IMG/VR virus record: IMGVR_UViG_3300030104_003374
Strand: one strand, 5' to 3'
Length of the DNA: 20,000 bases
DNA from: an uncultured virus (IMG/VR IMGVR_UViG_3300030104_003374)
Taxonomy: Duplodnaviria; Heunggongvirae; Uroviricota; Caudoviricetes
Positions 1 through 19,415 of the stretch are shown here, piece after piece; position 1 is the stretch's first letter, and every line of letters starts with the position of its first letter. The notes under the pieces were generated by a model that was not told where the DNA came from, did no database searches, and worked only from the letters and a program-made list of their open reading frames with translations. The position numbers and the translations under genes are program-made.

Positions 1-1377
1 GAGTTTAAAGAAACTATTAGACAGATTCAAGCTAATAAAAACTTTGTTAAGCTTGATGAAAATGGTGAGTTTTATATTAATGAAAAAACTAATAAGAAAC
101 TTAAAAGAGTTAGTAATATAATATCTGTTAAACCTGAAGATAGTAAATTACTTAAATCTGCTCAAACTATTGGAACTAAAGTAGATGAGTTAGTAAGAGA
201 CTTTTTTGCAGGAAATCTTAAGCAGAACTTAGCTGATTATAAGTTAACTGATAATGTTCAAGTTGTTGAAGATTTTCTTAAACAATTAGAAAATACCGCT
301 TTATATAAAAAGATTAAAGATGGTTCTGAGATTATGCTAGCAAATGATATAGTTGTTTATAATGATGATCTAGGTGTTGCTGGAACAGTTGATTTACTTA
401 CCTATGATAAAAATGGAAATGTCCGTATCTATGATATGAAGACAATGAGAGGAGATAACTTTACTGAAAAGTATAAAGGAGATACTAAGAATAAATATGA
501 AAGTACAAAGTTTGGTAAGTCTAAAAAGCAAAAGCATACTGAGCAGTTATCTATGTATAGAATATTACTAAATAATACACATGGTTTAAGAGCTAATACT
601 TTAGGAGTTATGCCTATATCTATTATGTATAAAGAAGGTGATACTCAAACTTCTCAATTACAGTTAATGAAAGGACAGGGCTTTGCTCCGGTTGCTATAA
701 GACAAGCTAAGTTAACTGATCCAAGAAAAATAGATACTTTAGTTAGAGAAAGAAAAGATCTTACTGGAAAAGATTTAAAAGAAATTAATGATTTTAAAAA
801 TGATATTGTAAAAGCTAATGCTGAAAGACTAGATGAATTAGAATTAGAATTAGCTATGGATGCTGATGTTAGTATTGCTGGTTTAGAAGCTTTACAAGAA
901 CTTATTAATCAAAGACGTGAGGATTTAAGTAGTGCTCCTATATATGATATAGCAGATGCTCCCCCTGTTATAGGTAAGCCGGGGATGAAGTTTGCTGTTG
1001 TAAACCAAACTAGAATAAATCCTGCAGATAATAAGAGTGCTATGTTAGAGAAAAATGATGTGGTTACTTGGGTTAAATCAGATGCTAAATCTATTACATT
1101 AAGAAAGGATGAAAATGGGAAAAGTACAGAATATAATGTTAACTTTGATCAGATCAAAAATTATATAAACGTGGAAGAATTAAATAAAGCAAATGCTCAA
1201 GAGGTAGAGGTAAAAGTTAAACCTGCAGAAATTAATAACTCTAATAATAATCAAGAAAATATACAGAGTATGATTGCTGATCCTAAACAAATGGCAAAAT
1301 TAGCTGAAGAAGGTAAAAACAAAACTGCTGCAGAAATAGCAGCTGAATTATTTAATGAGGAAAGCGATTGTAAGTAA
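1..1377 (+). CDS. 3' part of a large putative virion/ejection protein with a PD-(D/E)XK nuclease domain (5'-truncated by the window edge)
   Basis: Frame 1 is open from base 1 (EFKETIRQIQANKNFVKLDENGEFYINEKTNKKLKRVSNII...) into the listed 334..1377 ORF, so Met at 334 is internal. It ends ...EESDCK-TAA, 12 nt before the next giant gene. Confidence 0.9.
   Translation, partial: EFKETIRQIQANKNFVKLDENGEFYINEKTNKKLKRVSNIISVKPEDSKLLKSAQTIGTKVDELVRDFFAGNLKQNLADYKLTDNVQVVEDFLKQLENTALYKKIKDGSEIMLANDIVVYNDDLGVAGTVDLLTYDKNGNVRIYDMKTMRGDNFTEKYKGDTKNKYESTKFGKSKKQKHTEQLSMYRILLNNTHGLRANTLGVMPISIMYKEGDTQTSQLQLMKGQGFAPVAIRQAKLTDPRKIDTLVRERKDLTGKDLKEINDFKNDIVKANAERLDELELELAMDADVSIAGLEALQELINQRREDLSSAPIYDIADAPPVIGKPGMKFAVVNQTRINPADNKSAMLEKNDVVTWVKSDAKSITLRKDENGKSTEYNVNFDQIKNYINVEELNKANAQEVEVKVKPAEINNSNNNQENIQSMIADPKQMAKLAEEGKNKTAAEIAAELFNEESDCK
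100..630 (+). other. PD-(D/E)XK (RecB/Cas4-like) nuclease domain
   Basis: Motifs occur in the expected order: RVSNII, IGTKVDELVRDFF, GVAGTVDLL (Asp codon 391), IYDMKT (D-x-K, 433-441), QLSMY (Q-x-x-x-Y, 544-558). No Fe-S cysteines. Boundaries approximate. Confidence 0.8.
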
Positions 1378-1389
1378 AAAAATATAGTT

Positions 1390-4300
1390 ATGAAACTAGC
1401 TTGTGCACCAAGTGTAAAGAGAATAAAATCTCTTATACAATATATACAAAAAGGTATAGATGAAAAAGGTAAAGATATCAACCTTAATAGAACTATGCAG
1501 TTTATTTTTGATGGTAGAAAGGCAGCTCAAGATAAAGCAAATGAAAATCTTCCTGACAGTCAAAAGCTTGATTCCACTATAGTAGCGGCTGAGTTAGTAA
1601 AGCATGTTCCGTTTATTGCGGTCAATGACTTGATGAGAAGAAATATACAAACTAATAAAATACAAGACTTTTATAATGCTCATATTCTTTTTAATAATCC
1701 TGAAACAGGTTTAGAGAATATTATAAAACAATTTACTATTGACGTAAATAGAGCACAAGCTGCTGTACAAACTAGTAATAAAGCTGCAAATACAGAATCT
1801 CAAAATAGTACAGATCAAGCAAATGAAAAAGTAGATGTAACTCCTCCTGTAAGATTAAAAACATTTTCTCCACTGACCGGAACTATTACACCTTTTGTTA
1901 AGATAAATCCTAATAACAATCAAGTTACTATTGAGAAAGAAGATAAGAATAAAACAACTATAATAAATACATTAAATGCTTTAAGTTTAGAAAACCAAAA
2001 GGGAAATGGTTTATATGATTTTATATATCAAGGTACTAGACTAAAACTTAAAGCTGTTAACTTAAATAAATTTAATAATCAAAAAGATTTTGTAGCTGAT
2101 AAAAAATACTTAGATGAATTAGATAGTACTACAAGACAAGAAGTATTACGTTCAAGAAAATTAGTAGGTTCTAAAAAGAATGTTGAAGGAGTTCTTCAAG
2201 AAAATGATAGAGCTATATTAGTGGTTACTGATCAATACGGTTATCCTATTAGATTTAGTGAGGAGGGTAATATATCTAGAGATGGTACAGGACAAATTGT
2301 ATATCAATTCTTAAGAAGTGTAAAGAATGGAAAAGTTACTGATATATATGGTAGAGAAGAACAAATAGCTGATCCTTTAATAGTTTCTGAATCATTAGGT
2401 ATAACATTTGAGGAAGCTAAAAAAAGAATAGATGAAGAGATTTCTGTACTAGAAAAGTTAAATGAAAGAGTAGTAAAAAATAAAGAAGATGTTATTTTAG
2501 ATATAACAGGTTTAACTGAAGGAGTTTCTTCTACTCTAAGTGGTAAAAAAATTAAGATAAATAGTTTAGAAGTTTTACCAGGAATGACTGAAGCAAAGGC
2601 AAAAGGAATTGTCAAGTCAATAGAAATATCTCCAAATGATGCTATAGGTATTAAATCAGGTTTTCCTTTTGTAATGATTAATGGTAATCCATATGCAGTA
2701 GATAGACCAACAATTGAAAAAGAACTTGCAACAGAAATAGCAGAAGTCTTAACTAAAGATATACCTACTTCTGAAAGAGTTGATTTTATAGATCAGTTCT
2801 TACCTATTGCAAGTGCTAATGAATATGCAAAAGGAAGAAGGAGTTATAAATTAAATGCATCTGATAATGGTTCACTTTATTTTGAATTAAGAAATGGTCA
2901 AGTAATTAATTTATCCCCAAATAAACTATCTGATATAACTCAACAAGATAAAGATACTATTGTAGAAGCTTTAACTACTGGTTGGGAAAATAGAGGTGTA
3001 GGTAGCCCAATGAACTATAATAAAAAACTACTTAGTGAAAATAGTTATGACAGGTATGATATTAAAACGGGTAAGTTTAAAAGAGACCAAGACTATATTG
3101 AATTTTTAGGATCTCAAAATGCTGATATAACATTGAGTGATTTGGATGCAGGATTTTATAATCAGCTTATTCAATTTGGTAATCCCGATAGTCAGATAAG
3201 TAAAGATGTAAACAAAGCTAATCAGAAAAGAGATACCAGAAGTACTAGAAAAAGAACTAAAGATAATTTAGTTGAATTTTTCCAAAACAATGAAGATACT
3301 AAAACTATACCTGTTAAGGTATCTTCACTGACTCAAGCAATGGCAAGACAAGATCAAAGAATGGCTTTAGAGAACCCTCTTACTGGTCCAATGTTGTCCA
3401 CTGTTGTCCGAGATGTTAATACTCTTGTAGGAGTAGAAACAGGAGATACTGTTGAATTAAAAATAGTAACAGAAGAAGATCCTGATTTTTATCCAGATAC
3501 TATTGGTGTTTATTTTAAAGGAAATAAAATAGCTGTTATAGCTGAAACTGATTTTGATAATGCTGCTGAAAAAGAAGCTTATTTAAAAAATCAAAAAGAA
3601 GAAGAAAAAATTATAACTAAAAATTTAAATAATGAGTATATAAGTAATACTTTATTATCTAAAACAAGTAGTTCAAATACTAATGCCGCTAATACATTTA
3701 AGTCAGGTAAACATTTTAGAAGAGGTTATTCTTTAAGTAAAGTTACTCAACAGCAAATTAATGATGCTAAAAAGTGGTGGGCTAATTCTCCTTTAAATAA
3801 ATACATTGAATTAGATCCACTAATTAATGCTGTTAATTCAGATCAATTTGCAAGCTTTGTTATAAATGCAGCTGCTTTGGTTGATCCTAATGCACCATTA
3901 GCAAAGGTTGGGATAACTGCTAAAGGTACAGAAGTTGATTTATATCATGAAGCATGGCATGGGTTTACACAATTATATTTAACTCAAAAACAAAAAGATG
4001 AGTTATATGCTGAAGTTAAAAAATTACCTAAGTATAAAAATAAATCTTCATTTGAAATAGAAGAAGCTTTAGCTGAAGATTTTAGAAACTATGCTAAGAA
4101 TCCTAAAATAAAAAAAGGTAGACCTAAGCGTAATACAATATTTAGAAAGATCTTAAACTTTATAAATAAATTACTTAATAAACTTCCTGGTATTAAAATA
4201 AATAATACAGATGCTAACATTGATGTATTAAGTATACCTAGTGTAAAAGAGTTATATGATAATCTTTATCTTGCTAGTTCTGATCCTAAGTATGCAGAAC

Positions 4301-7300
4301 AAATAATGAATAACTATACTCCTCTTGTACAGAATACTTATTGGTATGAATTAAATAGAGGTATAAGAAGAACAGATAATGCTAAGTTTGATGCACTAAA
4401 TGATTTTGATTCTAATAAGATTGTTAATATAATTGATAGTGTTATTTCTGATATATCAAATGAAATAAACTATGATAGACTTACTACTAATTCTGCTAAT
4501 CCTAAAGCTGGAACTTTAGGTGTTATTTTAAATAAATCTGCCCGTAAAGAAACATATGATATTGTATTAGAAAGATTTGAAAATAAGTTAAAAGATTATT
4601 ATAAAGAGTTAGATAAGATATCTAAGATGCCTTCATTTAATGATATTAAAACTCTTAGTGATATTAAAAAAAATGCAGCTGGTGTACTTAAAGGAGCTGA
4701 AGGAGTTAATGATAAATATATTTTTACTAGAGCTCAGGTTAATTCATTTGAAAATCTAAATGCTGATATAGAAAAAGGGGAAAGAATATTAGGTTCAAAT
4801 TTTAGAGGGGTAGATATTATTAGTGATTACTATACACATACTGATGCTAAAATAAAAAATAGACCTGTTGAAATAATTGTAGTTAATAAAATAGAAGATG
4901 CTGAAAGACAGTTATACAATTATAAAAGAGTAGGAGATGAAAGTTATGTAGGAGTTACGGATATAAAACCTGTACCTACTACACAGCTTACGTCTGAACA
5001 ATCTAAAATTTTAGATAACATTAGAATGTTTCAAGCAGCTATAGCTAACTGGGGTGATGAAAACTCTGGTGTTATAAAGTATCATAGAAACAAAAGTAGA
5101 TACTCTATGATTAATAAGGCTTATGATCTTACTAACACTGCTTTAATAGAAGAACAACAAGAGATAGATGAGATACTTAATCCAGAAGAAAAAGATTCTA
5201 GTATTGTTCCTGATAAGAGTATAGGTAAAAAATCTTTACTACAGTTAGCTGAGAAAGAAGCTTCATATATTATAGGAAGTTTACATAAAGTAGATATTAA
5301 TGGTAATGCTGTATTTAATGAGCAAGGTTTTAGAGAACTTGCAGACTTTAATGAAAGCTTTAATGTAATAGCTAACCTTATACAAGGTGTTAAAGATCCG
5401 GCAAAAGCTTATAATATATTAAAAGAAGCATCAAAAGATTTTCCTGTATTAAAAGAACTTATACAATTAAAGTTAACTGATCCTTCATTACCAATTAATC
5501 ATGAGTATGACTTTGATATAGTTAGTGCATTCTTTCATACATTTAAAAAACCAAAGATTGATTATTTACAATTAACTGCGTTTGAAGAGGATGGTAAATA
5601 TAACCTAGCAGTTACTCAATCTGATTTAGATGTAGACGGTATATTAAGAGAATATAGAGAAGGATTTAATGCTCAACCTGAAGGTAAATATGTTAGTAAA
5701 ACAATTGATAATCAATCAGTTCTTAAACTACAAGATGTTGTAAAAGATTTTACAGATTCTAAAGGAAGACTTAAGAAAGATAAAAGTGTTGAATTTTTAA
5801 ATGCTTTAGGTATTGATGTAGATAACATTAAAAGAATAAGAGAAGCATTTGATAAAGATGCTGTTCAATTCTATGGATTAAATTATATTCATGCTATTAC
5901 AAAAGGATTTGCAGAGATTCAACAAGCAGATCCTAATGATCCATCTGTTTCTGTTTTACAAAAACAATATGCAGAAGAGTTTGTAAAGAGTCCTGCAAAA
6001 GTTTTAGCTAAAAAGATTCCTGCTAAAATAATTACTAATCCTCTATTTAAAGGTAAACCTATAAATCAGTATACTCAAGTAAAACGTATTGCAAACTTGC
6101 AAGCAAAGTATGGAGCTATTACTAAAAATACTGGTATACTAGATGCAAAAGGAAACTTAATATTTAATGTTATTCAAGATAGTTCTGCTACTTATTTAGT
6201 AGATGATGTTAACTCAATGGATAATCTATCTAATGCTTGGTTAAACAGACAAAAAAGTAATACTCCAAATGAATTTGCTTATTTAAGTAAATTTAATCCA
6301 GAGAAAAATACTTTTACAAAAGAATCTATTTTATTAAATAGCGTATTCCGTATTAAAGATGGAGGTAATTATAATAAAAGAAAAGATGATATAGTATTAG
6401 ATCTGTTTGCTACTTCAGGTGTAAATGTATCTGACAGTGCTAAAGCAAGTAATAATACTACTAGTCTATATAGGAATGATAAATTTTCACAAGAGTTTCA
6501 TACATTTCTTTTAGACGGTGTAAAAGAATTTATAAGACATGGTGAAAAGAAATCTGCATTTGGATTAAGAGTTTTAGATTCAGGTTCAAATACAGGAAGT
6601 ATAGTAAGACCTCAAAGACCGGATGGTAAAGAGTATGATAAAAGTTTATATGTTGATGTAGACATGTTTACTCCAGAAGGAGGAGGTTCTGATTATGCAA
6701 TAAACAATATGATACTTCCTTATTTACGTTCTGAGTTTACTAGAATAAAAAGATTTGGTGAGAACAGAGCTGCTTATTCACAGCTTACTAGTTATAATAA
6801 AGAATTATTTAATGGAAGAAAAGCAGGAGAATCATTTACTATGTTTGACGGAATGCTTAGAGATACCACTAAGAATGAGTTATATGCATTACCTATATCT
6901 TCTTCAGTTGATGTCATTGATTACTTAACTAACAATAAACCTGAACTAAAAGAAAAAGTAGTAAAAGAAATAAAAGAGTACTTTGAAGAAGAAGTAAGTA
7001 AGACAAAAGAGTATGCTTTTGATAATAGTAATTATGTAGATGATGCACTAATAAAGAAATTAAATTTACCTGAGTTAGTTACTGAAGGAAAGACAGAGAA
7101 TGAAATTGAACTTTTAAAAGCAGAGAGAAAAACTTTAGAAGTTAATTCACTTTTAAAGGCATATGAGTATAATTCTTTTATTCACAATTTTGAAACAATA
7201 AATCTTATATACGGAGATCCTTTACAGTTTAACTATGTAAAAGAAGATATCACTAAACGTATTGGTGCTTCTGTAGGTGGTGGTAATAATATGATATTAG

Positions 7301-10300
7301 CACAAAACGCAATTAATTGGATTAATAAACAATGGGTAGGTAATAGAGATACTTATGCTTCTATAAATAAAAAGCCTGAATTAACTTATGGTCAAACATT
7401 CAATACAGATGTTATAGAAGATTCTATAAAAGATAGTCTTTATTTACCTATTATAGAAAAAGCAGCTAAAGAAAAGTTTGCAAAAGAGTTTCCAAAAGGA
7501 ACTAAAAAAGAATTAGATGCTTTTGTTAAATCTATTACAGATGGTTATAAAGATATGGAAGAATCAGATGGTGGAGGTTATATATCATTTGATGCTTATA
7601 GAATGTTTAAGAAAGCTTCAAACAAGTGGAGTGAAAATCAAGAAGACTTATATCAAAAACTAATAAAAGGTGAGAAGGTAGATGCAGAAGATGTTGTTGA
7701 TTTCTTTCCCATATATAAATTAGCTTACTATGGTGATATAGCAAACGCTCCAGTAACTGCTACTGCAATGCATAAGTTTGCACTTACACCTCTTATCCCT
7801 GGTATAATATCTCCTGTTCTTACTGATCTGCATAATGCAATGATGGATGAAGGACTGCATTATGTTACTTATGGAACAGGTTCTAAGATAACTGCTTTAA
7901 CCAGAGAACCTGGGAAACTTACAGATATTTTTACTGATAAAACAAGTAGTCAAATAAAAGAAATAACTGAAGAAGATAGACAAAAAGGTAAAAAATTATT
8001 TTATCCTAACGTGTTATATACTAAAGGATTAAAAGAAGTAACAGATGTAAATACCTCTTATAAATCATCAGTTACATTTCCAACACAGCAAAGACCAGTT
8101 CTTTTAGATGCTCTTGTTTCTGTTGGAGAATTATTAAATGAAGATAATAAACCGCTTCTTGATGAATACTATAAACAAATAAGAGATTATACAAAAGCTA
8201 ATCAGTTAGAACTTTTAAATGATATAGGTTTTGAAATAGATAAAAATGGAAGATTTATACCTATTGATGGTAATCTTTCTAAGCTTATGTCAGTTATTAA
8301 AAAAGAACTTGAAAAGAATGAGGTACCTAAAACTCTTAGAGATTTAGTTGATGTTACAAGAACTACCAAATCAAGAAAGGTTGATTTGTCTATATATCCT
8401 AGACCGGATGATATAGAAAAGTTATTAATGACCTTAGTACAAAAAAGATTAGTTAGATATAAAGTTAATGGTGAAGCTCTAGTACAGGGACCTGTAACAA
8501 TGTGGAAAGACTTGTGGGCAACACAAGAAGTTATAAAAGATAAAAGTAAGCAAAGAGAATTACTTGGAACAAATGGACTTGTTTTCTATACTCCAGGTAA
8601 TGCAGCTCATACTGCAATAACTATGCAAGGACCTTTTGTTAATTTATTAAATTTAGAAGATCCTGATTCTCCAGGTTTAACAATAAAAGATACTGGTGAT
8701 GTAGATAGATTAAATGAATTAATTAAAGATCCTAAATTTAGAGAAGAAAACAGAGAAGCTCTTACAATACTAGGACCTAGAATACCTATTGATTCTGCTA
8801 ACTCTATAGAAATTTTTGAAGTATGGCATTTCTTAAAGCCTGGTGGAGGTAATCAAATTATTGTCCCTACAGAAATTGTAGCTAAGGCAGGTTCTGACTT
8901 TGATGTTGATAAGTTAAATATGATGTTTCCTCATATAGGTAAAGACGGTAAGATTTTAAAAACTAAGTTTTCTGAAAAAGATTTAATATCTGAAATAGAA
9001 AGAGGAGATAAACAGAATACTGTATTAGTTGAAGACTATAAGAAGGCCAAGTTTAATGAGTTACTTAAAGTAATGAAAGATATACTTTTATTACCTGAGA
9101 ATTATATTAATCTTATTAAGCCAAATGAAACAACTCTTGTAGAAAATCAAGTAGATTATTTACAAACAGCAACTGGAGGTTATAGTAGATTTGAAAACTT
9201 ATATACTAAAGATGAAGGGAGAAGAAGTATTAAAGGTAAAAAAGCAGTAAGCCCAACGACAACTTTAAGTACATCTTATATTTTAGAAAAACATGATGCA
9301 AACTTGACAGGGGCTGGTCCTTTAGGAGTTATTGCATTAGTAAATAAAATGCATAGCTTATATAAGTCAGTAAACTTTATGATGCCTCAAACTTATATTG
9401 TTAGTAATAAATCTAGAATGATTCATAGGTTATTATTTGACCATAATAAAACTGGTAAAAATATTTCTCTTGCTCATGAATATAATAAAGATAATGCAAG
9501 AATATCTGATGTAATATCTCATTTATTAAATGCTTTATTAGATAGAGGAAAACTTCAATATCCTGTTGATTTAAAAGCTACACCTGAAGGAATTAATATG
9601 GTTAGTTATTTAGTACAAGCAGGAGTTAAACAAGATGAGGTATTTTTATATATGAATCAACCTTTAATTGTTGAATACTTAAATGAGCAAGCAAGATTAA
9701 AAGGTGCTTTTGCAAAAATAACTGGAGAAGATACTAACAAGGTACAACAGAAAGCTGCAGAAAATGTATTGAATTCTCACTTTAATGAAGAACAATTAAG
9801 TAATATAATAGCTAATGCAAACAATAGTAGAAATGGTAGTAGACTAGATAAGAAAAGACCGTTGCCAAAAATAAATACTATTCTTGAAAAGAATCTACCT
9901 TACTCTTCTCTTTATATGACTAATAAGTATTTAAAAAACGGAATTAATAAGGATGTTTTAAAAAAACAAATTGAAGATACTACTCTAATTACAAGTCCTA
10001 CAGATTTGGCTTTATTCTTAAGTTATTTAGAGACAGAGAAAGCAATAAAAGGATTACGCACATTACAACCTATTTCTACTCCAGATACAAACTACACAAA
10101 AACTCTTCAAGAACTTGATGAGGCTAAACAAGCAAGAAGTAGACTTACTGGTGAAGGATTAGATCTTACATCTGTAAATAGACTATTAGATGGATCTATA
10201 CTTACTCCTTTTAAAATTGGTAAACTAGCTGACAGTATAATATCTCAAGCAATGCCCTTAAGATCTAGCCAATGGGTAAGAGATTTTATTTCAGATCAAC

Positions 10301-13032
10301 TTAAAGATTTTGATTCACGTAATGAAATAAAAGCAAGGTTTGGTTCTGATGCGGGTTATGTTAGTAGATTCAGTTCTTCTTTTAATAATGCTATAATAAA
10401 TTCTTTATTTCAAAATAAACTATCAAGATTTGTAGATGGAAATAATAAAGTATTATTGTATCCTGAATCATACAAAGGTAATAAAGTTGAGTTTGTAGAT
10501 GGCAATCCTAATTTTGTAAACGCAGATCCAGTAACTGTTTACGAAGGTAAAATATACATTAATAAAGGAAAGCTTACAAAACAATTTAGAAATCAAGTAT
10601 TTTTAAATACAAATAATACAGAAGAAGGACATTTAAAAAGAGGACTAGATACATTTGCACCACAAGAAAATCCTTTTCCTGCATTTGAAGATTATATAAG
10701 ATACATGATGGATGTAGAGTATATGAAAGAATATCAGTATACACCAAATTCATTAAGTCAAGATAAAGATTTTAGAAACCTTGTATCAAAAACAAAAGAT
10801 TTAGATAAAGCCTTTACATCATATGTATCTCAAAAAGCTTTATCAAATACATTTAATAGAGCCTATATTTTAGGAATAACTAAGTACTCTTACTTTGATC
10901 AAGTAAATAATATTATAAATGAATTTCCAAATCTTAAAGAAGATTATCCAGTACTAGCTCAATTAGCTAAAGCTAAATTAAAAGCTGATAGAAAAGAAAA
11001 AATATTTAGTTTAAATAATAAGATGCTTGTTAAAGGTTCATTAGCAGAAGACTATGATGTTCAGTTGAGAAAGCTTGCTAATATAGGAGTAATGAAATCT
11101 TTAAATGCACAAGACAATCAAAGGATTACTGATGTATTTAAAAAGTTTTCATTAATGAGTGAATATCAAACAGGTACAGGTTTCCATCCTAATAGTCTTA
11201 TGGATATACTTAACCCTTCTCAAAAAGTAGCATTACTAAGAGGTCCTGTTAATAAAGCTGTTAATACAAATTTGAATAATATAGATTTACTTAAAATATA
11301 TAGCAGCTTAATAAATGCATATCAGTTTCAAAACTATTTGATGTCTTCATCAAAAACACAAGATGAATCAGGTATAGTTGATTTAGACGCAGAAGATATG
11401 TTACAGTATTTCCCTGATGGAAAAGAAGTTGATATAGAAGAAGTCTTTCCTGAAACTGTAGAAGAAGAAACTGCTGGGGTTAAACCTGAAAATATATCAA
11501 GTAAAGGTTCAAGCTTTGCTAAAAAATTAACTAATCCTGGAAATAACTTAGAAGTTACGTATAAAGGAAGAAAGTTTAGAAATGCGGAACATGCTTATCA
11601 AACATATAAATCAGGTGAGTTTGATCAAAAGGCTTACAATAGTACTGCATTTAAACCTATAGGTTCTAAACCTGCCAATAAAAATACAAACTATCAAACA
11701 ATGGTTGATATTCTAAAAGCTAAATTAGAACAGCACCCTGAATTAATAGAGGGTATTAATCAAAGAGGTGGATTAGCTTATATAGAACAATCTACTCATA
11801 ATGTAACAGGAGATAAATTTTGGGAATCTAAAGGTCAAAATAAATTTATTGAAGCTTTAGCTGATGCTTATAATTCTACTCAACCAGCTGCTGGGGTTGC
11901 TATATATGAACCTGTTAATATAACATTTCCTAAAAATGCATTTACCATTAAGCCTATTAAAGGTAGACCTGATAAAAAAGCAACAGCAAAATCTAAAATA
12001 GCTACTCAATTTATAGGATTTGCTGAAGGAATAGCCGGAAGTAGTACAGCTAACTATGCTCAACAAGCAGGGTTATTTGCTAATACGGGTAACTATGGAT
12101 CTGATGATGTAATATTTGTTTCTATTGGTGGTAAAAGAGGAAGTGCTCAACTACAAAAATCTCAACAAGACAGAACTATAAGAGAAGCTATTAAAGCTGT
12201 AGAAGCTGGAGCAACTATACTTACTGATAATAAAGCTTATACAGATACTAGTACATACAACACTGGTGAGAAAAGACTTTATGAAAATATGGAGGCTAAG
12301 GGTTATAACTATTCTGAAGTAACTGTAGATGGTGAAACTATAGGTACTTGGAGTAAAACTGTTCAACCAACTGGTGAGGTTACTGAAATAGAAGGTCTTG
12401 GTAAAGTATATTCTGATAATGAAGTATTATCTAAAATAGGTACAGAAGATCAATATCAAAGATATATTAACTCAAAGTTTCCAACAAGCAGGATGAAAAA
12501 TGTTGTTTATAGAGGAACTCCTAGTCAGATAATAAAGAGTGAATATGACCGTACCCCTGCTGCTAATTTAGGTAGAGGTATTTACTATGCAGGTGATATA
12601 AGAAAAGCACGTAAGTATGGTGATAATATATCTACTGCTATTGTAAATATTGAAGATCCTCTCATAGTAAGCATAAATATGAATGATAATAGAGGTTATT
12701 CATCTAACTTAAGTAAAATAAATGCTAAACAAATTACTGTTAATAAAGATAATCTTAATGGTAAAACTTCAATACTTAGTTATGAAGGTTTTCAAAAAGA
12801 GGATTACGTAAGATATAATGATTATACAGGTCATTATATAGGACCTTTAACTGAAGAGGGTCTTCCTGCAGTTAAATTTAGAGGTCAGCGTCTTACTCTT
12901 GATGAAGTTGTTTTAACTTCTCCAGAACAAGTTTATGAATTAGGAACTAAAGAAGATATACAAGGCTTTAAAGAATTTGTAAGAGATGATTGGAATGGAC
13001 CTTATCCTAAAGGACCAGTAAAATGTGTATAA
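1390..13032 (+). CDS. Giant (3880 aa) polyvalent virion RNA polymerase, crAss-like/phi14:2 gp66 type, with zincin, NADAR and ART-like accessory domains
   Basis: Uninterrupted 11.6-kb ORF. It carries the catalytic-type GSDFDVDKL with RIP ~40 aa upstream, an SDGGGYIS motif, HEAWH, and C-terminal NADAR and ART-like motifs. It sits between two other very large genes. Confidence 0.88.
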   Translation: MKLACAPSVKRIKSLIQYIQKGIDEKGKDINLNRTMQFIFDGRKAAQDKANENLPDSQKLDSTIVAAELVKHVPFIAVNDLMRRNIQTNKIQDFYNAHILFNNPETGLENIIKQFTIDVNRAQAAVQTSNKAANTESQNSTDQANEKVDVTPPVRLKTFSPLTGTITPFVKINPNNNQVTIEKEDKNKTTIINTLNALSLENQKGNGLYDFIYQGTRLKLKAVNLNKFNNQKDFVADKKYLDELDSTTRQEVLRSRKLVGSKKNVEGVLQENDRAILVVTDQYGYPIRFSEEGNISRDGTGQIVYQFLRSVKNGKVTDIYGREEQIADPLIVSESLGITFEEAKKRIDEEISVLEKLNERVVKNKEDVILDITGLTEGVSSTLSGKKIKINSLEVLPGMTEAKAKGIVKSIEISPNDAIGIKSGFPFVMINGNPYAVDRPTIEKELATEIAEVLTKDIPTSERVDFIDQFLPIASANEYAKGRRSYKLNASDNGSLYFELRNGQVINLSPNKLSDITQQDKDTIVEALTTGWENRGVGSPMNYNKKLLSENSYDRYDIKTGKFKRDQDYIEFLGSQNADITLSDLDAGFYNQLIQFGNPDSQISKDVNKANQKRDTRSTRKRTKDNLVEFFQNNEDTKTIPVKVSSLTQAMARQDQRMALENPLTGPMLSTVVRDVNTLVGVETGDTVELKIVTEEDPDFYPDTIGVYFKGNKIAVIAETDFDNAAEKEAYLKNQKEEEKIITKNLNNEYISNTLLSKTSSSNTNAANTFKSGKHFRRGYSLSKVTQQQINDAKKWWANSPLNKYIELDPLINAVNSDQFASFVINAAALVDPNAPLAKVGITAKGTEVDLYHEAWHGFTQLYLTQKQKDELYAEVKKLPKYKNKSSFEIEEALAEDFRNYAKNPKIKKGRPKRNTIFRKILNFINKLLNKLPGIKINNTDANIDVLSIPSVKELYDNLYLASSDPKYAEQIMNNYTPLVQNTYWYELNRGIRRTDNAKFDALNDFDSNKIVNIIDSVISDISNEINYDRLTTNSANPKAGTLGVILNKSARKETYDIVLERFENKLKDYYKELDKISKMPSFNDIKTLSDIKKNAAGVLKGAEGVNDKYIFTRAQVNSFENLNADIEKGERILGSNFRGVDIISDYYTHTDAKIKNRPVEIIVVNKIEDAERQLYNYKRVGDESYVGVTDIKPVPTTQLTSEQSKILDNIRMFQAAIANWGDENSGVIKYHRNKSRYSMINKAYDLTNTALIEEQQEIDEILNPEEKDSSIVPDKSIGKKSLLQLAEKEASYIIGSLHKVDINGNAVFNEQGFRELADFNESFNVIANLIQGVKDPAKAYNILKEASKDFPVLKELIQLKLTDPSLPINHEYDFDIVSAFFHTFKKPKIDYLQLTAFEEDGKYNLAVTQSDLDVDGILREYREGFNAQPEGKYVSKTIDNQSVLKLQDVVKDFTDSKGRLKKDKSVEFLNALGIDVDNIKRIREAFDKDAVQFYGLNYIHAITKGFAEIQQADPNDPSVSVLQKQYAEEFVKSPAKVLAKKIPAKIITNPLFKGKPINQYTQVKRIANLQAKYGAITKNTGILDAKGNLIFNVIQDSSATYLVDDVNSMDNLSNAWLNRQKSNTPNEFAYLSKFNPEKNTFTKESILLNSVFRIKDGGNYNKRKDDIVLDLFATSGVNVSDSAKASNNTTSLYRNDKFSQEFHTFLLDGVKEFIRHGEKKSAFGLRVLDSGSNTGSIVRPQRPDGKEYDKSLYVDVDMFTPEGGGSDYAINNMILPYLRSEFTRIKRFGENRAAYSQLTSYNKELFNGRKAGESFTMFDGMLRDTTKNELYALPISSSVDVIDYLTNNKPELKEKVVKEIKEYFEEEVSKTKEYAFDNSNYVDDALIKKLNLPELVTEGKTENEIELLKAERKTLEVNSLLKAYEYNSFIHNFETINLIYGDPLQFNYVKEDITKRIGASVGGGNNMILAQNAINWINKQWVGNRDTYASINKKPELTYGQTFNTDVIEDSIKDSLYLPIIEKAAKEKFAKEFPKGTKKELDAFVKSITDGYKDMEESDGGGYISFDAYRMFKKASNKWSENQEDLYQKLIKGEKVDAEDVVDFFPIYKLAYYGDIANAPVTATAMHKFALTPLIPGIISPVLTDLHNAMMDEGLHYVTYGTGSKITALTREPGKLTDIFTDKTSSQIKEITEEDRQKGKKLFYPNVLYTKGLKEVTDVNTSYKSSVTFPTQQRPVLLDALVSVGELLNEDNKPLLDEYYKQIRDYTKANQLELLNDIGFEIDKNGRFIPIDGNLSKLMSVIKKELEKNEVPKTLRDLVDVTRTTKSRKVDLSIYPRPDDIEKLLMTLVQKRLVRYKVNGEALVQGPVTMWKDLWATQEVIKDKSKQRELLGTNGLVFYTPGNAAHTAITMQGPFVNLLNLEDPDSPGLTIKDTGDVDRLNELIKDPKFREENREALTILGPRIPIDSANSIEIFEVWHFLKPGGGNQIIVPTEIVAKAGSDFDVDKLNMMFPHIGKDGKILKTKFSEKDLISEIERGDKQNTVLVEDYKKAKFNELLKVMKDILLLPENYINLIKPNETTLVENQVDYLQTATGGYSRFENLYTKDEGRRSIKGKKAVSPTTTLSTSYILEKHDANLTGAGPLGVIALVNKMHSLYKSVNFMMPQTYIVSNKSRMIHRLLFDHNKTGKNISLAHEYNKDNARISDVISHLLNALLDRGKLQYPVDLKATPEGINMVSYLVQAGVKQDEVFLYMNQPLIVEYLNEQARLKGAFAKITGEDTNKVQQKAAENVLNSHFNEEQLSNIIANANNSRNGSRLDKKRPLPKINTILEKNLPYSSLYMTNKYLKNGINKDVLKKQIEDTTLITSPTDLALFLSYLETEKAIKGLRTLQPISTPDTNYTKTLQELDEAKQARSRLTGEGLDLTSVNRLLDGSILTPFKIGKLADSIISQAMPLRSSQWVRDFISDQLKDFDSRNEIKARFGSDAGYVSRFSSSFNNAIINSLFQNKLSRFVDGNNKVLLYPESYKGNKVEFVDGNPNFVNADPVTVYEGKIYINKGKLTKQFRNQVFLNTNNTEEGHLKRGLDTFAPQENPFPAFEDYIRYMMDVEYMKEYQYTPNSLSQDKDFRNLVSKTKDLDKAFTSYVSQKALSNTFNRAYILGITKYSYFDQVNNIINEFPNLKEDYPVLAQLAKAKLKADRKEKIFSLNNKMLVKGSLAEDYDVQLRKLANIGVMKSLNAQDNQRITDVFKKFSLMSEYQTGTGFHPNSLMDILNPSQKVALLRGPVNKAVNTNLNNIDLLKIYSSLINAYQFQNYLMSSSKTQDESGIVDLDAEDMLQYFPDGKEVDIEEVFPETVEEETAGVKPENISSKGSSFAKKLTNPGNNLEVTYKGRKFRNAEHAYQTYKSGEFDQKAYNSTAFKPIGSKPANKNTNYQTMVDILKAKLEQHPELIEGINQRGGLAYIEQSTHNVTGDKFWESKGQNKFIEALADAYNSTQPAAGVAIYEPVNITFPKNAFTIKPIKGRPDKKATAKSKIATQFIGFAEGIAGSSTANYAQQAGLFANTGNYGSDDVIFVSIGGKRGSAQLQKSQQDRTIREAIKAVEAGATILTDNKAYTDTSTYNTGEKRLYENMEAKGYNYSEVTVDGETIGTWSKTVQPTGEVTEIEGLGKVYSDNEVLSKIGTEDQYQRYINSKFPTSRMKNVVYRGTPSQIIKSEYDRTPAANLGRGIYYAGDIRKARKYGDNISTAIVNIEDPLIVSINMNDNRGYSSNLSKINAKQITVNKDNLNGKTSILSYEGFQKEDYVRYNDYTGHYIGPLTEEGLPAVKFRGQRLTLDEVVLTSPEQVYELGTKEDIQGFKEFVRDDWNGPYPKGPVKCV
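3780..4190 (+). other. Zincin-like metallopeptidase domain in the RNAP polyprotein
   Basis: LYHEAWHGF (HExxH, 3946-3960, aa 853-857), followed by EEALAEDF (4060-4083, candidate third zinc ligand) and an amphipathic FRKILNFINKLL helix. Boundaries approximate. Confidence 0.8.
7150..9700 (+). other. Two-barrel (double-psi beta-barrel) RNA polymerase core
   Basis: SDGGGYIS (from 7564) resembles the DG motif of QDE-1/RDR-like polymerases. Lysine motifs HKFAL and GSKI follow. GPRIP (RIP 8779-8787) precedes the DxDxD motif DFDVD at 8896-8910 (aa 2503-2507), which matches the DFDID-type site of crAss-like virion RNAPs. Boundaries approximate. Confidence 0.85.
11482..11880 (+). other. NADAR (YbiA-like) domain
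   Basis: Motifs LTN..., YKGRKFRNAEHAYQTYK (AEHAYQ 11584-11601), MVDILKAKLEQHPELIEGI and GDKFWESKGQNKFIEAL correspond to the NADAR signatures (S/A)EHxxQxxK, MxxxxxxKFxQxxxL and DxxW..GxNxLG. Confidence 0.8.
11899..12363 (+). other. Uncharacterised alpha/beta domain (~155 aa) between NADAR and the ART-like domain
   Basis: Compact Gly/Ala-rich segment (IATQFIG, GSSTANY, ANTGNYGSDDVIFVSIGGKRG, AGATILTD, YNTGE) bounded by linker repeats. I cannot name the family. Confidence 0.55.
12430..12990 (+). other. ADP-ribosyltransferase-like domain (ART-PolyVal-like)
   Basis: VVYRGT (Arg codon 12511, where YHG is usual), LGRGIYYAGDIRKARKYG, VNIEDP and a late DEVVL strand (Glu codon 12904) give the strand order of ART folds in phage polyvalent proteins. 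Confidence 0.65.
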
Positions 13033-13067
13033 TAATGAGTATATTTATATAAATAAAAGAATAAGTA

Positions 13068-16000
13068 ATGCCTTGCAGAATATATATAAAAGAACAACTA
13101 GAAGATAAAGTAAAAAGAGAAACTATAGACATGAGAAATATGTCTTATAGAAATGCTCTTAATGCGGCTAGAGCTTACAATGCTAAGACGGGTTATAAAG
13201 TAATTGAAGTTTACTCTGATCAAGATGTAGGTACAGTTAGATCAATTAATATACCTACAGAATTTGTTGATTTTTGGTATCAAAAAGAAGAGATATTTGA
13301 AAATGAGCAACAAGCTAGAGAAATTCAAATGGAAGATGCTCTAAGAGCAGGTATTAAAGAAGAGCAGTTTACAGATAGATATTTATTTGATGAGTCAGTT
13401 CAAGAAGAATTAGATAGTAGTTATATAGATACTGTTGAACAAATAGCACAACAATTTAGTTTAACTAGAGAAGAACAAAAAGCAGATAGAGATTTAGAAA
13501 TAGCAACTAAACTTGCTGAAAAATTTAAAAAATCTTTTGACATTGATTATCAGATAGTTAATGAAAGTGAAGCTAAAGCACTATTAGAAAAATCACCCGT
13601 TCCTTATGATGGAGAAGGAGCTTTCTATTATCAGAATAAAGTATTTTTTGTTGAAGGAAATTTTAATTCAGACACTGTTCTTCATGAATATGCTCATCCT
13701 TTTATAAAAGCAATACAAAAAGATAACCGTGCTTTATTTGATAAGCTATACTATTCTCTTGGTGGTACTACAGAAGGTAGTAGTATTATAGAACAACTTA
13801 CAAAAAAAGCTGAAGAAAAAGGGAATCTAGATTATATTGGATCAGATAGATTTAAAGAAGAAGCTATTGTAAGATCTATTGAATTAGATGGTAATAGAAA
13901 ACTTAATAAAATTAAATCTGATGATGTAGGTTTTAAAAAGTTTATAAAGGATTTAATGTATGCTATAAGACAAGTACTTAGAAAGTTTGCTAAGAAGTTA
14001 AATCTAAAAGCATTAAATACTAATACTAAAGTAGATCAGCTTACAGACATGTTATTAGGTGACGACTTTGTTATTGATACTAGTATACTAGAAGCTTCAG
14101 ACTTTCCAGAGTTTAGAGATCAGCAATTAGACATGATAGAAGAGTTCAAAAAAGTAGAGGCCTCTAAGTTTATTAAAGCTATAAATGATTTTGATTCTTT
14201 AGCTGAACAACAACTTAGTGATTTTAGAAGAACTCCTGGTAAACTAAAAGAATCATTAAAAGGAAAAGAAGGAGAGATATTACTTAAAAATTTAAAAGAT
14301 TTTCTAGGTGATATCAATACAAAAGATATGAGTAAAATCCAAGAAGATAAATTATTGGATGCAATTGCTAACCGTCAAAAAGAATTTACTGCAAGAGCAG
14401 GTGCTATAATATCTAGTGTTGAACATATCTCTATATTTGTTGCACAAATAGATAACATATTAAAAAGTATGGAATCTAATCAGGAGTATTTAGAAGCAGA
14501 AGGAAATGCTAAACTACATTATTACACTACAATACTTGAGCAACAAAAAGCATTCTTAGGTAAAAGTTTACTTCCTACTTTAAATTTATATCCTACAACA
14601 GAAGTATCTAAAAAGATTCAAGCTGTAAAAGGATCAATTGATACAGCCCTTGACACAATACAGAAATATCAGTTTGATTATATTAAAGAATACTTAGCTG
14701 AAGGATCTGAATATATGAACTCTAACATTGTAGCTGACTTTACTAACAATGATGTTAAACTTATTTTTGAAGCATCCGGTTTATCTCAAGATGATGTAAA
14801 TAATTTTGTAAATAAAATAGTAAATAGAGCAAACAAAGGCCCTATTACTAAGTATAACATGAATGATTTAAAGAATGATTTAGGTGGAAAAGAAATTAAC
14901 CCTGGTCAAGTTAAATATTTATTTAAAGCTATACAAAACTTTAGTAGTAATTATGTATCTAAAGAAAAGTTAGATACTGTATTAAAAGGAGAAGGAGGAG
15001 ATATTGGGAAAGTAGCTGCTAACTTAAATGCGTATACACAAATAAATGACCCAGTAATTGGATCATTTGTTATGCAAACAAAAAAGTTTTTATCAGATGC
15101 TGCTATGGAAAGTCAAGAGCAGTATAATACTGTAATGAATAGATTAGTTCCATTATTAAATCAAGTAGGATATAACCCTAATGATACAACTCAGTTGCAA
15201 GATTTATTATACTTTGTAGATAAAGTAGCTGTAGTAAACAAAGAAGGTATACTTGAAGAAAAGGAAGTATATACCTTATTAAATAAATTTAAAGATTGGA
15301 GAAAAGATTATAAGCAACTTACTCATGCTAGAGAGCAGGCTGTTGAACAAGGAGATCAGCAAGCTATAAGACAAGCAAAAGCAGAGTTAGAAGAGTTTGA
15401 AGAAAAGTATATGCATAGACAATATACGCAAGAGTTTTATGACGTTCAAAAAATATGGAGATCTAATGTTGAAGTAACTAATCCTGTAACAAAGGAAGGT
15501 ATGCTAGTAGATAGAGAACTTTCTGAAGAAGCTTATGAAGAAAGAAATACAGCTTTATCAAACTTAAATGCTGCAAGAAAGAATAAGTATATGACAGAAG
15601 ATGAGACTAATCCTGTATCAGAATTAGACGAAGCTGAGAGAGAATATAAAGAACTTTATAACTTAGTAGATGATCAAGGAAACTATAAGAAAGGAGATGA
15701 TCTTAAAAAGACTTTAGTAAGACTTAAACATAGAGAAGAATCTAATAAGTTTTATACAGGAGATACTGACTTAGATGCAATACAAAGAGATCTAAATACG
15801 TTTGTAAATGTTCAATTAAAAGGTAAAGGTATTACTGATTCTAAGGAGATTGAAAGATTAATTGCAGAAGAATTTGGAAATGAGAATATGGTTGAAGCTA
15901 AGTCTCAATTATATTTTGATGAACAGAAAAGATTAAATGACCAAATAAAACAATTAACAGAAAAAGGAGGAGTAAGTGATGTTGCTAGAAGATTAGCTGA

Positions 16001-19000
16001 ATTATATAGACTAAGAGGTTTACAATTATCTGTTGTTTCAACTTTAGGTGTTCCTGATGGAACTGCTTTAACTCAAGGTCAAATACAAAAGTTAAAAAAG
16101 ACTGAAGAAGAAATAGCTAAAGTCCAAAAAGAATATGATTCTCAAACAGGTTTGACTAAAGATGAAATTGCCATACTAGAAAATTATGAAGATATAATTG
16201 CAAGAGAAGGTAAACTAGCTTCTGCAGAACAACAAAAAGAGTATGTTAGATTATCTACTGTTAAAAATAATTTAGGTCTTACAACAACTGAGCAGATTAG
16301 ATTAAGAAAATTGTTTAAAGAAAAAGCACAACTTACTAATAAGAAAGCTACTTCTGAATATATGGATATAATGAATAGTTTAGTAGGTTCTGGAATTGCT
16401 AATTTAGATTATGAAGGAAAACTAGATGATAAAGATCTTAAAAAAATTACTTTTGAGAATGCTGATGACTTTATTAATAATCCTGTTATAGAAAAGCTTA
16501 GAGATAATCCTGCATTCTCAAACTGGTTTGATCAAAATCATTATAAAAAAACAATAAGAGGTAAAGAACAATATGTAAGATTATCTTCTTGGACATCTTC
16601 AACTCCTTCACAATTAAAATATTACGAGACTACTACTTTAATTAATCCTGATACTAATCAAGAAATTGTACTTCCAGGTAAACCTAATTCTAAATACTTT
16701 AGAAGAAGAGTAAAAGATCAGTATAGAACTATACCTTTTGGACTTACTGATAAAGAGAAACAAAAATATGTTGGTACTATAATAGATAATAAAGGAAACT
16801 ATTTACCTAGAGAATATAAAGGAACAGATCCTACAGGAGCATACGATGCTAAATATAAAAATCAAGAATATTATGATTTAGAACAGCAAGATAATACTAG
16901 ATTTAAATTACTTAAAGCAGTTACTGAAGAGTTTTTAAAACTACAAGAAAATAAAGCTTACAGCTCTAAATTATATTTAGATCAACCAAGATTTAGAAAG
17001 AGAGGAACTTTAGAATATGCTCAATCAGGAAAAGTAGGTAAGAAGTCTGCTGCTATATGGTCATGGGCTAAATCTCAATTTAAAAAATCTGTGGATGATG
17101 CTGACTCAGATCCTGAGTACGGTTTTGATTTTGATCCTACTATACACGTTGTACAAACAGATGTATCAGGCCAACCTATAAGCAGAGTTCCTATACAAGG
17201 TTTATATGGATTAGATGCTAGTGATGTTTCTGGGGATGTTTTAGGAGGAATTAGTACTTATTTATATTCTTTAAATGAGCAACAAGCTTTGATAGAGAAT
17301 GAACCTATGATGAAAACTGTAGAGGGAATATTAAAGAATGAAGATAATGCTATAAAGGACATGGCAAAATCAAGTGCATTCATGAATAGAATTACAGGTT
17401 CAATGAGTTTTATTGATAAAGGTAGAAGAGGAACTAAAGAAAATAATAGAGCAGAAGCTTTACGTTATTGGATGGAAAAAGTTTGGTATAATCAAATTAA
17501 TAGTGAGTGGATAGAAAAAAATCCAGGTAAAACTAAACTTGCTAGATTTCTTATGGGTGCTGCAAGTAGATCTTTTATTGCTGGAGATTTACAATCTGCT
17601 ACTAAGAATAGATTTGGTATGACTCTTCAAAAGTTTTTAGAAGCATCTGGAGGAAATTTAATAACATATTCTTCTATGGCTAGAGGAAAACTATTAGCAG
17701 GAAAAGCTACTATGGAAATGTCAGGCAGTGAGATATATAAAGTAGGTTCTAAAGGATATTTGGCCCAACTTATGGAAGGCTTTGATGCTGTACCAGGTAA
17801 ATTTAAAAAAGATTTTGGTAGATCTTCCTCTAGAACTTTTATAAAAGATGCATTAGATGGATCATTTTTATATGATGCTAGAAGATTAATGGAAGTTAAT
17901 GCTGCACAAGAATTATTTTTTGCATTAACAGAAAATCATTTAGTTAAACAAAAGCAACCAGACGGAGAAGTAAAAGAGATATATTTAACAAAAGCTTATG
18001 AGTTAGACAGTAAAGGACAAATAAAACTTAAAGATGGAGTTGATATTGAATATAGTATGAAACCTATAAAGCATACTATAGTAGCAGAAGATACTTTAAG
18101 TACTATAGCTGATACCTATGGTATAACTGTTGAAGAGTTAAAGGAAAAAAATAAGACAATAAAAAGTGATGAGGATCTTAAGAATGGGAAAGAGATAACA
18201 ATATCTAAAGCAAGTAAGTTTAAAGACTTTAAGTTTAGAGTTGCTTCTGTAAATATGAGACTTAATGGTAACATGGCAAGTATAGATAATGCTCAAGCAA
18301 ACAAGTATTTAGGATATAACTTATTTTCATTTTATAGAAAATTTGCTTTACCTATGTTTATGGAAAGATTTCAAGCTAGTGAAAAAGAAGATAATAAATA
18401 CGGAGAAGTCTATGATTGGAATGCAGGAAATACTAAAAAAGGTATTTATATAAGTGCTTTTCAATCAATGCGTAATCTACTTACGGATTATAAAAATTAT
18501 AAAGAACTAATGACTCCTAAAGAAATAGGTGCAATGAAAAAAACTCTTGCTGAAATTGGGTCTATTTTAGCCTTAGCTATGGCTGCTATATTTATATTTG
18601 GTTACGAAGATGATGATCCTGACAGATTTAAAAAATTAGAAGAAAGACAAAAGACTTGGGGTGGATGGTTAGCTAATCAAGCTTTATACATGACTATAAT
18701 GACAAGAAGAGAAAATGAGATGTTTAATCCTCTTTTAGGTTATCAAGAAATGTTTGACTTAGTTAGTAATACTACTATTGCTACTGGACCAACTATAGAC
18801 TTATATCTTAAAATACTTAATGATATGATATACATGATTAGTGGTAATGATAAAGCTGTTTATAAAAGTGATGTAGGTCCTTATCCTTGGCAAGAAGAAG
18901 GTAGTTATAAACTATGGCATCATTTCTTTAGCATCTTTGGACTTAAAGGTAAAAATGTAAATCCTATAAAAGCTATTAAAGATCAAGAGTCATTTAGAAA

Positions 19001-19037: not shown

Positions 19038-19166
19038 ATGAAATTACTTTCAAAGACAGAACAAAAAAAGAGTGTCTCAAGACCTGGTGTACATGCCAAG
19101 TCTAAGACATCCAATGTTAAATCTTCTAGAAATTATAAAAAGAAGTATAAGGGACAAGGACGTTAA
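19038..19166 (+). CDS. Small very basic protein (42 aa), absent from the ORF track
   Basis: ATG at 19038 after an A-rich leader. Translation: MKLLSKTEQKKSVSRPGVHAKSKTSNVKSSRNYKKKYKGQGR-TAA. It fills the gap between flanking genes. The RPGVHAK...NYKKxYxGQGR pattern resembles small proteins I recall from Bacteroidota phages (not verified by search). Confidence 0.75.
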   Translation: MKLLSKTEQKKSVSRPGVHAKSKTSNVKSSRNYKKKYKGQGR

Positions 19167-19357: not shown

Positions 19358-19367
19358 AATCAAATTT

Positions 19368-19402
19368 AAAAAAAAAAGGGGAACAACCGAAGTCATTCCC
19401 CT
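19368..19402 (-). terminator. Rho-independent terminator with cUUCGg tetraloop
   Basis: The minus strand reads AGGGGAATGAC-TTCG-GTTGTTCCCC followed by T10. The stem is 10-11 bp with two G-U pairs and begins 13 nt after the stop of the 19416 gene. Confidence 0.92.
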
Positions 19403-19415
19403 ATATTTGTAACTA

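Follow-up and report, generated by a model that had tools for sequence, protein, structure and literature searches.

Cysteines at the facing ends of three giant cargo proteins of a crAss-like phage: a candidate disulfide-linked chain

Why would three consecutive giant proteins keep only four cysteines, all of them at the ends where one protein faces the next? The question is raised by a 20,000-nucleotide stretch of DNA (hereafter the window) from an uncultured virus of the Caudoviricetes (IMG/VR record IMGVR_UViG_3300030104_003374). The window carries an operon for cargo proteins, from a crAss-like phage of marine origin, in which three consecutive + strand open reading frames (ORFs; 1..1377, 1390..13032, and 13068..19010) encode the proteins called here P1, P2, and P3. 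By analogy with two cultured relatives, phages phi14:2 and crAss001, all three are most likely packed in the particle. An original prediction, made from the sequence alone, held that the facing cysteines are under selection and pair in gene order, so that the proteins leave the particle as a single train. This prediction was partly supported. Selection and pairing in gene order are favored by the conservation of the cysteines, by the way in which they follow fissions and fusions of the genes, by a model in which P1 docks on P2, and by a precedent in phage A4; the train itself is a more tentative proposal.

Four cysteines in three giant proteins of a proposed chain

Translation of the window ORFs confirmed that the 6,318 visible residues (458 in P1, 3880 in P2, and 1980 in P3) contain four cysteines only, one at each of the four facing ends. 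P1, the first link of the chain, is visible as the C-terminal 458 amino acids of a 2348-amino acid protein (1..1377, + strand, 5' open) and has one cysteine, at visible residue 457 (position -2; codon 1369-1371, in the terminal ESDCK). P2, the middle link (1390..13032, + strand, 3880 amino acids), has cysteines only at residue 5 (codon 1402-1404, in the initial MKLAC) and at its second-last residue, 3879 (codon 13024-13026, in the terminal PVKCV). P3, the last link (13068..19010, + strand, 1980 amino acids), has a single cysteine at residue 3 (TGC codon, 13074-13076, in the initial MPC) and, as had also been claimed, none at its C-terminus. A metagenome contig 100% identical to the window (L075) provides the full-length P1, which starts with MAEETPIS, is 2348 amino acids long, and carries a single cysteine at -2 and none at its N-terminus. 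Completed in this way, the whole chain is 8,208 residues long and has four cysteines.

Cysteine scarcity originates at the protein level rather than in the DNA, as TGT/TGC triplets are common in other frames (236 in the +2 frame of P2 versus 2 in frame). At the cysteine frequency of small ORFs in related loci (1.13%), about 71 cysteines would be expected, and the probability of having no internal one is about 9e-32. If cysteines were placed uniformly, the probability of finding one in each of four 5-residue intervals at the facing ends would be 9.4e-12; chance placement of the terminal cysteines is ruled out by this probability, of about 1e-11.

When cysteines were mapped in homologues of all three proteins, the terminal ones proved to be conserved. 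Of the 63 P3 homologues examined (24-99% identity), 59 have a cysteine at residue 2-6, and in 55 there is a sole cysteine in about 2,000 residues; none has a C-terminal cysteine. The remaining four are entirely devoid of cysteine, and three of them are clearly shorter fragments. Similarly, a cysteine lies within the last 8 residues of 41 of the 42 P2 homologues and at residue 3-5 of 31 of them, 25 having exactly these two. Of the P2 matches that lack an N-terminal cysteine, six are longer by 1,000-1,700 residues at this end, being P1+P2 fusions; another (P0075) was rejected as a genuine case because it is a truncated gene call, with profile position 38 at its residue 1. Residues C5 and C3879 of P2 are invariant columns among 25 aligned homologues, in an alignment with 23% mean column identity. 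Finally, all 43 aligned P1 tails carry the cysteine, which is their only invariant column (20% mean identity).

The free ends of the chain carry conserved motifs of their own, MA(E/D)E at the start of P1 and (K)xE.FENL(R/K/N) at the end of P3, which may be contact points for other virion parts.

Pairing across loci, gene breaks, and cultured relatives

An IMG/VR scan with a profile of the P2 alignment provided 63 loci (39 clusters at 50% P2 identity), the junctions of which were scored with a mechanical rule (ORFs of at least 400 amino acids, first ATG as start, and cysteines sought in the first 8 and last 12 residues). Cysteines occur on both sides of 114 of the 163 scorable junctions, on neither side of 49, and on one side only of none, counts which overstate the number of independent events because the related loci are phylogenetically non-independent. 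The 49 cysteine-less junctions are those upstream of P1. The original prediction expected cysteines at facing ends to co-vary, and this dataset does not contain a single discordant junction. Overall, the 177 chain proteins (442,866 residues) contain 231 terminal cysteines and 27 internal ones (0.006%), versus 1.13% cysteines in small ORFs of the same loci. Terminal positions vary (3-6 at the N-terminus and -1 to -10 at the C-terminus), and both codons are used (207 TGT and 24 TGC).

At the sequence level, the rule was shown to co-vary with gene fission and fusion. Four loci (L013, L035, L054, and L061) carry an intercalated fourth protein, which has both an N-terminal and a C-terminal cysteine. 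In L013, this protein ends with the module with which P2 itself terminates in five other phages; in L035, it corresponds to the first ~560 residues of P3 in five other phages. To judge from their sequences, these two extra proteins correspond to P2 or P3 terminal modules of other phages, with a cysteine pair at the presumed new boundary. Fusions of P1 with P2 lack the pair at the former junction (L059, L089, L092/L094, P0087, P0097, P0100, and P0103-P0105). The same holds for the gut Suoliviridae cr4_1, cr118_1, and cr55_1, in which P1 and P2 are fused and the cysteine pair is absent. When these natural fusions were searched with P1-tail and P2 N-terminus profiles, the site of the former junction was not found. 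Chains of two proteins, as in Intestiviridae cr3_1 and Crevaviridae cr127_1, have one cysteine pair.

Other interruptions of chain genes come without a cysteine pair. No pair is found at the break in the cr108_1 polymerase gene, which is split by a group I intron (Rfam RF00028), nor in genes cut by an in-frame stop (L083 and L086) or a frameshift (L103). The cr108_1 intron (NC_055878; L065 17346-17664, 80 bits, E 7e-21) lies inside the catalytic GSD/DxDK motif, and gp054 and gp053, annotated as 'hypothetical proteins', are the exons of this one polymerase gene. The other breaks are an in-frame TAA at 17250-17252 in L083, an in-frame TAG at 9765-9767 in L086, and a frameshift at about 15500, near the 3' end of the gene, in L103; they could be assembly errors, recoding, or decay.

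Two cultured phages show the same pattern. In phi14:2, the cleanest case, the sole cysteine of g067 is its last residue, g066 (the virion RNA polymerase) has cysteines at 3 and 2179, and g065 has one at 3; all three were detected by mass spectrometry as virion proteins, and g066 is the polymerase that was crystallised. In crAss001, gp47 has a cysteine at residue 2339 of 2341, gp50 at residues 5 and 2404 (plus 1334), and gp49 at residue 5. In this phage, gp47 lies on the strand opposite to gp50-gp49, following a gene inversion, and has kept its terminal cysteine: the cysteine pattern is independent of gene adjacency. The phi14:2 gp67-gp66-gp65 and crAss001 gp47-gp50-gp49 trios resemble P1-P2-P3 in having a homologous polymerase, three giant genes, and the terminal-cysteine pattern, and their products were detected by mass spectrometry in virions. 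They differ in that the window proteins are much longer (for the polymerase, 3880 versus 2180-2412 amino acids) and have extra domains. According to the crAss001 structural atlas (PMC10172136), gp47, gp50, and gp49 have masses of 262.5, 276.9, and 154.5 kDa, about 694 kDa in sum. Neither the phi14:2 polymerase preprint (Drobysheva et al., bioRxiv 10.1101/2020.03.07.982082), which contains no occurrence of cysteine, disulfide, or thiol, nor the available part of the crAss001 structural atlas (PMC10172136) mentions these cysteines or a disulfide between these proteins.

Just upstream of P1 lies a protein of about 1,000 amino acids starting with MATYLQGV (L075 159-3725, with equivalents in L001-L062), which is cysteine-free in nearly all loci and has no terminal cysteine; the L075 protein, for example, has 1188 amino acids and no cysteine. 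Proteins gp46 of crAss001 and g068 and g070 of phi14:2 are likewise devoid of cysteine. The protein upstream of P1 looks like a cargo or ejection protein standing outside the chain.

Gut crassviruses tolerate more internal cysteines (39 in 50,395 residues, summed by hand over 8 gut genomes) than the IMG/VR relatives of the window (27 in 442,866). A purge that is less strict under anoxic conditions might account for this difference in counts.

Predicted docking and the probable nature of the link

What could the facing cysteines do? To model the P1-P2 junction, the first 700 residues of P2 (25-row alignment) were combined with the C-terminal 200 residues of P1 (43-row alignment; window 775-1374). 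The complex reached interaction prediction scores from aligned errors (ipSAE) of 0.67, 0.63, and 0.67, versus 0.02 for the best of three controls, and the model runs agree in at least 44% of contacts. Of 157 solved complexes, 116 attain this mark, as do 2 of 215 mismatched pairs. In the model, the C-terminal helix of P1 docks on the P2 N-terminus, with both cysteines in the interface, which comprises P2 residues 5-22, 39-50, and 60-83 and P1 tail residues 159-199. The predicted docking segment of P1 covers its last ~42 residues (1249..1371, + strand), of which the cysteine is encoded by the last codon, and the predicted docking surface of P2 covers residues 5-102 (1402..1695, + strand), beginning at the Cys5 codon. 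The best modelled pairs are antiparallel (P2 residue 11 with P1 tail residue 192, 17 with 188, and 20 with 177). With this register, P2 Cys5 and the P1 cysteine (tail residue 199) would therefore meet at the end of an apparent helical hairpin, the loop of which would be replaced by the two thiols.

A structure is available for a similar arrangement in cyanopodophage A4 (Anabaena phage A-4L, Saffermanviridae). According to the accessible part of the report (PMC12002296, PNAS 2025), cryo-electron microscopy of the pre-ejectosome reveals a disulfide between Cys1715 of gp27 and Cys5 of gp26, with the C-terminal helix of gp27 inserted into gp26. We checked the A4 genome: gp27 (1717 amino acids) and gp26 (1114 amino acids) each have a single cysteine, at 1715 and 5, respectively. 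As in the window, consecutive large ejection proteins are thus cysteine-free except at facing termini. In the A4 structure, the upstream C-terminal helix enters the downstream protein, which for P1-P2 is predicted by the model. The systems differ in that A4 has one link between two proteins, no RNA polymerase, a 41.7 kb genome, and another family affiliation. By analogy, the window proteins would work like A4 gp27/gp26 while belonging to other protein families, and the A4 structure suggests that the bond between facing cysteines is a disulfide.

Taken together, these observations lead us to consider it probable that the facing cysteines form interchain disulfides, which, once the particle is released, would hold the docked termini of P1, P2, and P3 together as one linear chain. 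Internal cysteines have been purged from these proteins, and one is kept within a few residues of each terminus facing the next protein. In this scheme, the C-terminal helix of each protein would dock on the N-terminal helices of the next, and the juxtaposed thiols would form an interchain disulfide after the particle has reached an oxidising environment, the purge of other cysteines preventing wrong pairings. The product would be one covalent chain, P1-S-S-P2-S-S-P3, which is linear in essence and would be the equivalent of the polyprotein of fused-gene crAss-like phages.

Instead of forming a disulfide, the two cysteines of non-covalently docked termini might both be ligands of a metal ion or of some other group that bridges them. 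The pairing rule and the predicted docking are equally compatible with any two-thiol bridge, and both P2 and P3 are zinc enzymes by motif. However, each end provides a single thiol, without a conserved His, Cys, Asp, or Glu beside it, and two ligands make a poor zinc site; in P1 tails, the cysteine is the sole invariant column. As the A4 structure, as far as its report is accessible (PMC12002296), shows a disulfide for the same signature, we regard a metal or other bridge as unlikely.

Disulfides could also be homotypic, joining P1 to P1, P3 to P3, and P2 to itself (as dimers, rings, or polymers) rather than different proteins to each other. Single-cysteine proteins can dimerise, and several copies lie together in the capsid (about 6 per RNA polymerase-associated protein are suggested for crAss001 in the available part of the atlas, PMC10172136). 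However, homotypic bonds leave unexplained why the first N-terminus and the last C-terminus of the chain are cysteine-free, why both new ends carry a cysteine at a fission, and why both are lost at a fusion. Moreover, in the model the C-terminus of P1 sits on the N-terminus of P2 (controls at 0.02), and the published A4 bond is heterotypic. Homotypic pairing thus appears quite improbable.

There is even less room for independent roles of each terminal cysteine, for example as a site of acylation, as an anchor to some other part of the virion, or as a mark for processing or recognition, with an incidental facing arrangement. Pairing among chain proteins is strict (114 junctions with both, 49 with neither, and none one-sided), pairs are lost on fusion, and the N-terminal cysteine is not preceded by a signal peptide or lipobox context. 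We therefore hold independent roles to be very unlikely; lipoprotein processing in particular was rejected, as no signal peptide precedes the cysteine. Native chemical ligation or intein-like joining was also rejected: the cysteine never comes first after the methionine in the 63 IMG/VR loci (residues 3-6), one P3 homologue (P0061) having it at residue 2, and there is no intein-sized insert.

Finally, that the cysteine codons are a by-product of a nucleotide-level junction signal (translational coupling, promoter, or terminator) is so improbable that it can be set aside: at most junctions the genes lie close together (-14 to +30 nucleotides) and TGT dominates as expected in AT-rich DNA, but pairs persist over gaps of 500-1,800 nucleotides (L010, L015, L054, L059, and L061), across an intervening ORF (L089), and with partners on opposite strands (crAss001 gp47 versus gp50), cysteine positions vary, and both codons are used.

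Several observations weigh against the disulfide chain. Besides the non-independence of the 63 loci, a second set, consisting of 29 metagenome loci found with a P1 fragment and scored with the same rule, yielded 60 junctions, of which 22 have cysteines on both sides, 32 on neither, and six on one side only. Two of these six involve the broken genes of L086 (in-frame TAG) and L103 (frameshift), where the expected cysteine lies in the continuation; in the other four, the neighbor has 10-21 cysteines and is not a chain protein, or the ORF is non-adjacent. The six cases were thus explained by inspection, by eye rather than by a blind rule. In addition, gp40 of cr110_1 has its first cysteine at annotated residue 17 instead of 3-6. 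As to the docking model, the partner has a predicted local distance difference test (pLDDT) score of only 60, and the Cys5-P1 cysteine pair is absent from the 25 best pairs, both residues appearing only in the interface lists. Furthermore, self-made alignments were used, so that the counts of solved complexes and mismatched pairs attaining the ipSAE mark hold only roughly here. Chemically, the bond would have to form after release, because particles assemble in the reducing cytoplasm, and gut crassviruses keep their cysteine pairs despite an anoxic habitat. The A4 analogy is one of signature only, as A4 gp26, gp27, and gp28 have no BLASTP match at E<=1e-5 among all chain proteins; moreover, the bond is described in the accessible part of the A4 report (PMC12002296) as stabilising the pentameric ring of the pre-ejectosome, and not as part of a train.

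If the facing cysteines do form disulfides, what would the tether be for? According to the available part of the crAss001 atlas (PMC10172136), cargo must partly unfold for tail passage, and exit order is probably set by packing and mutual interactions. Because the cysteines lie 1-10 residues from the termini, side stubs would be tiny and the partly unfolded chain could pass the narrow tail channel. With less certainty than for the disulfide, we infer that the tether sets both the order and the stoichiometry with which the proteins are ejected, and that cytoplasmic reduction then undoes it. It is conceivable, if doubtful, that it survives partial unfolding, fixes exit order, and is cut in the cytoplasm. 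The full version of the train is equally tentative: Crassvirales cargo (~8,200 residues here, with the polymerase in the middle) may leave as one disulfide-stitched linear polymer, with disulfides replacing the peptide bonds of the fused-lineage polyprotein and surviving unfolding. One protein would then pull the next in fixed order, and the reducing cytoplasm would free, and perhaps activate, the polymerase.

Disulfides are known from other crAss001 virion proteins: the available part of the atlas describes them in gp57, tail hubs, and rings, and it reports mass spectrometry on reduced and non-reduced virion samples (PMC10172136). For gp47, gp49, and gp50, which were unresolved in the atlas, no disulfide is given in that part of the source. 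Cysteine depletion also has a precedent. In the Schitoviridae, giant virion RNA polymerases and co-ejected proteins (N4 gp50 and DEV gp71-gp73) are almost cysteine-free, which the accessible part of the report ascribes to passage through the oxidising periplasm (PMC11445570); that the N4 virion polymerase lacks cysteines, as stated in the original prediction, agrees with this account. The window proteins share this depletion. They differ in that depletion is total in the Schitoviridae (0.00075% in gp71 homologues), where no terminal cysteine is reported in that part of the source, while the window keeps one per facing end. A near-total absence of the Schitoviridae type, termini included, is not observed in the window, where four terminal cysteines are retained.

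The phi14:2 polymerase preprint (bioRxiv 10.1101/2020.03.07.982082) mentions, with reference to Yutin et al. (2018), forms of the crAss RNA polymerase module that are single giant polyproteins, and supposes that they are cleaved into components. They have the same domain content as the window chain, and fused P1+P2 forms were found here in related loci. The cysteine rule suggests an opposite logic, in which covalent continuity would be the functional state, restored in split genes by disulfides.

The original prediction also knew of no earlier description of such a chain. Our literature search, outside which most subscription journals lie, retrieved no paper on terminal cysteines or disulfides between crAss RNA polymerase-associated proteins. 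Novelty must nevertheless be restricted, as one head-to-tail disulfide was published in 2025, for A4 (PMC12002296, in its accessible part). The multi-link, order-wide version, in unrelated proteins, with a virion polymerase and a fission/fusion rule, appears to be undescribed in print.

Other features of the window and meaning for the Crassvirales

In P2, the predicted docking region at the N-terminus is followed by a zincin HExxH domain and then by the core of a two-barrel virion RNA polymerase; the C-terminal accessory part is variable. The zincin-type motif is HEAWH (H853, E854, and H857; 3946..3960, + strand). The metal-binding motif of two-barrel RNA polymerases is DFDVD (8896..8910, + strand), within GSDFDVDK at residues 2501-2508; D2503, D2505, and D2507, like the HEAWH motif, are invariant in the 25-homologue alignment. 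In tblastn searches, P2 residues 1901-2800 matched phi14:2 g066, annotated 'Catalytic RNA polymerase subunit' (E 3e-10, 21% identity, 69% of query), and 67 crAss-like records, and the P2 alignment profile matches phi14:2 g066 (1.4e-33) and crAss001 gp50 (8.5e-28). Invariant motifs, tblastn, and profile matches thus identify P2 as a virion RNA polymerase of the two-barrel crAss type with a zincin-like domain fused to it. Packaging and injection of P2 would be expected from phi14:2 and crAss001 proteomics. The variable C-terminal part contains sub-threshold Pfam matches at 11518-11823 and 12502-12807, to NADAR (E 0.004, 17.7 bits versus a cut-off of 35.1), in a stretch also spanned by PHROG 1017, and to ART-PolyVal, the ADP-ribosyltransferase of polyvalent proteins (E 8e-4, 20.6 bits versus a cut-off of 31.2). 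These weak matches hint that this part may be an injected ADP-ribosylation module.

P3 carries a zincin-type motif as well, HEFAH (H206, E207, and H210; 13683..13697, + strand), in invariant alignment columns, and a LysM peptidoglycan-binding domain at residues 1669-1712 (18072..18203, + strand; Pfam PF01476, 37.7 bits versus a cut-off of 20.9). With a conserved HExxH motif in both, P2 and P3 have putative zincin-like metalloprotease domains; beyond this motif, neither protein has a Pfam match to a zincin family. In visible P1, a stretch at 235-720 has a weak PD-(D/E)XK nuclease match (19.7 bits, below the cut-off of 22) and matches PHROG 298 'exonuclease' (E 1.2e-7).

Downstream of P3, the coding strand switches to two small - strand ORFs (19163..19483 and 19416..20000, the latter 5' open), which have no Pfam or PHROG match. 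A terminator-like hairpin lies on the - strand at 19402..19377, with 0.4 expected by chance, and a tRNA search of the window found none. Sequence comparisons with 50,697 deposited phage genomes revealed no close relative of the phage: neither megablast with the window nor tblastn with P3 gave a match in these records. Likewise, the P3 profile matched none of 14 cultured or annotated crassvirus proteins, and an IMG/VR scan with the P3 protein alone found no relative.

The signature is of practical use for annotation, as terminal cysteine pairs mark true protein boundaries in giant chain genes, while a missing pair flags introns, frameshifts, and in-frame stops inside them. Moreover, phi14:2 and crAss001, two cultured phages with the signature, make the idea directly testable. 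The Crassvirales include the most abundant human-gut viruses, and what is at issue is the way in which they bring cargo proteins of several megadaltons into the host, among them the polymerase with which infection begins. If true, a covalent end-to-end tether would explain the extreme cysteine purge and provide a concrete mechanism for the order and stoichiometry of this cargo, and the 'polyprotein' forms would amount to the same covalent product, arrived at in another way.

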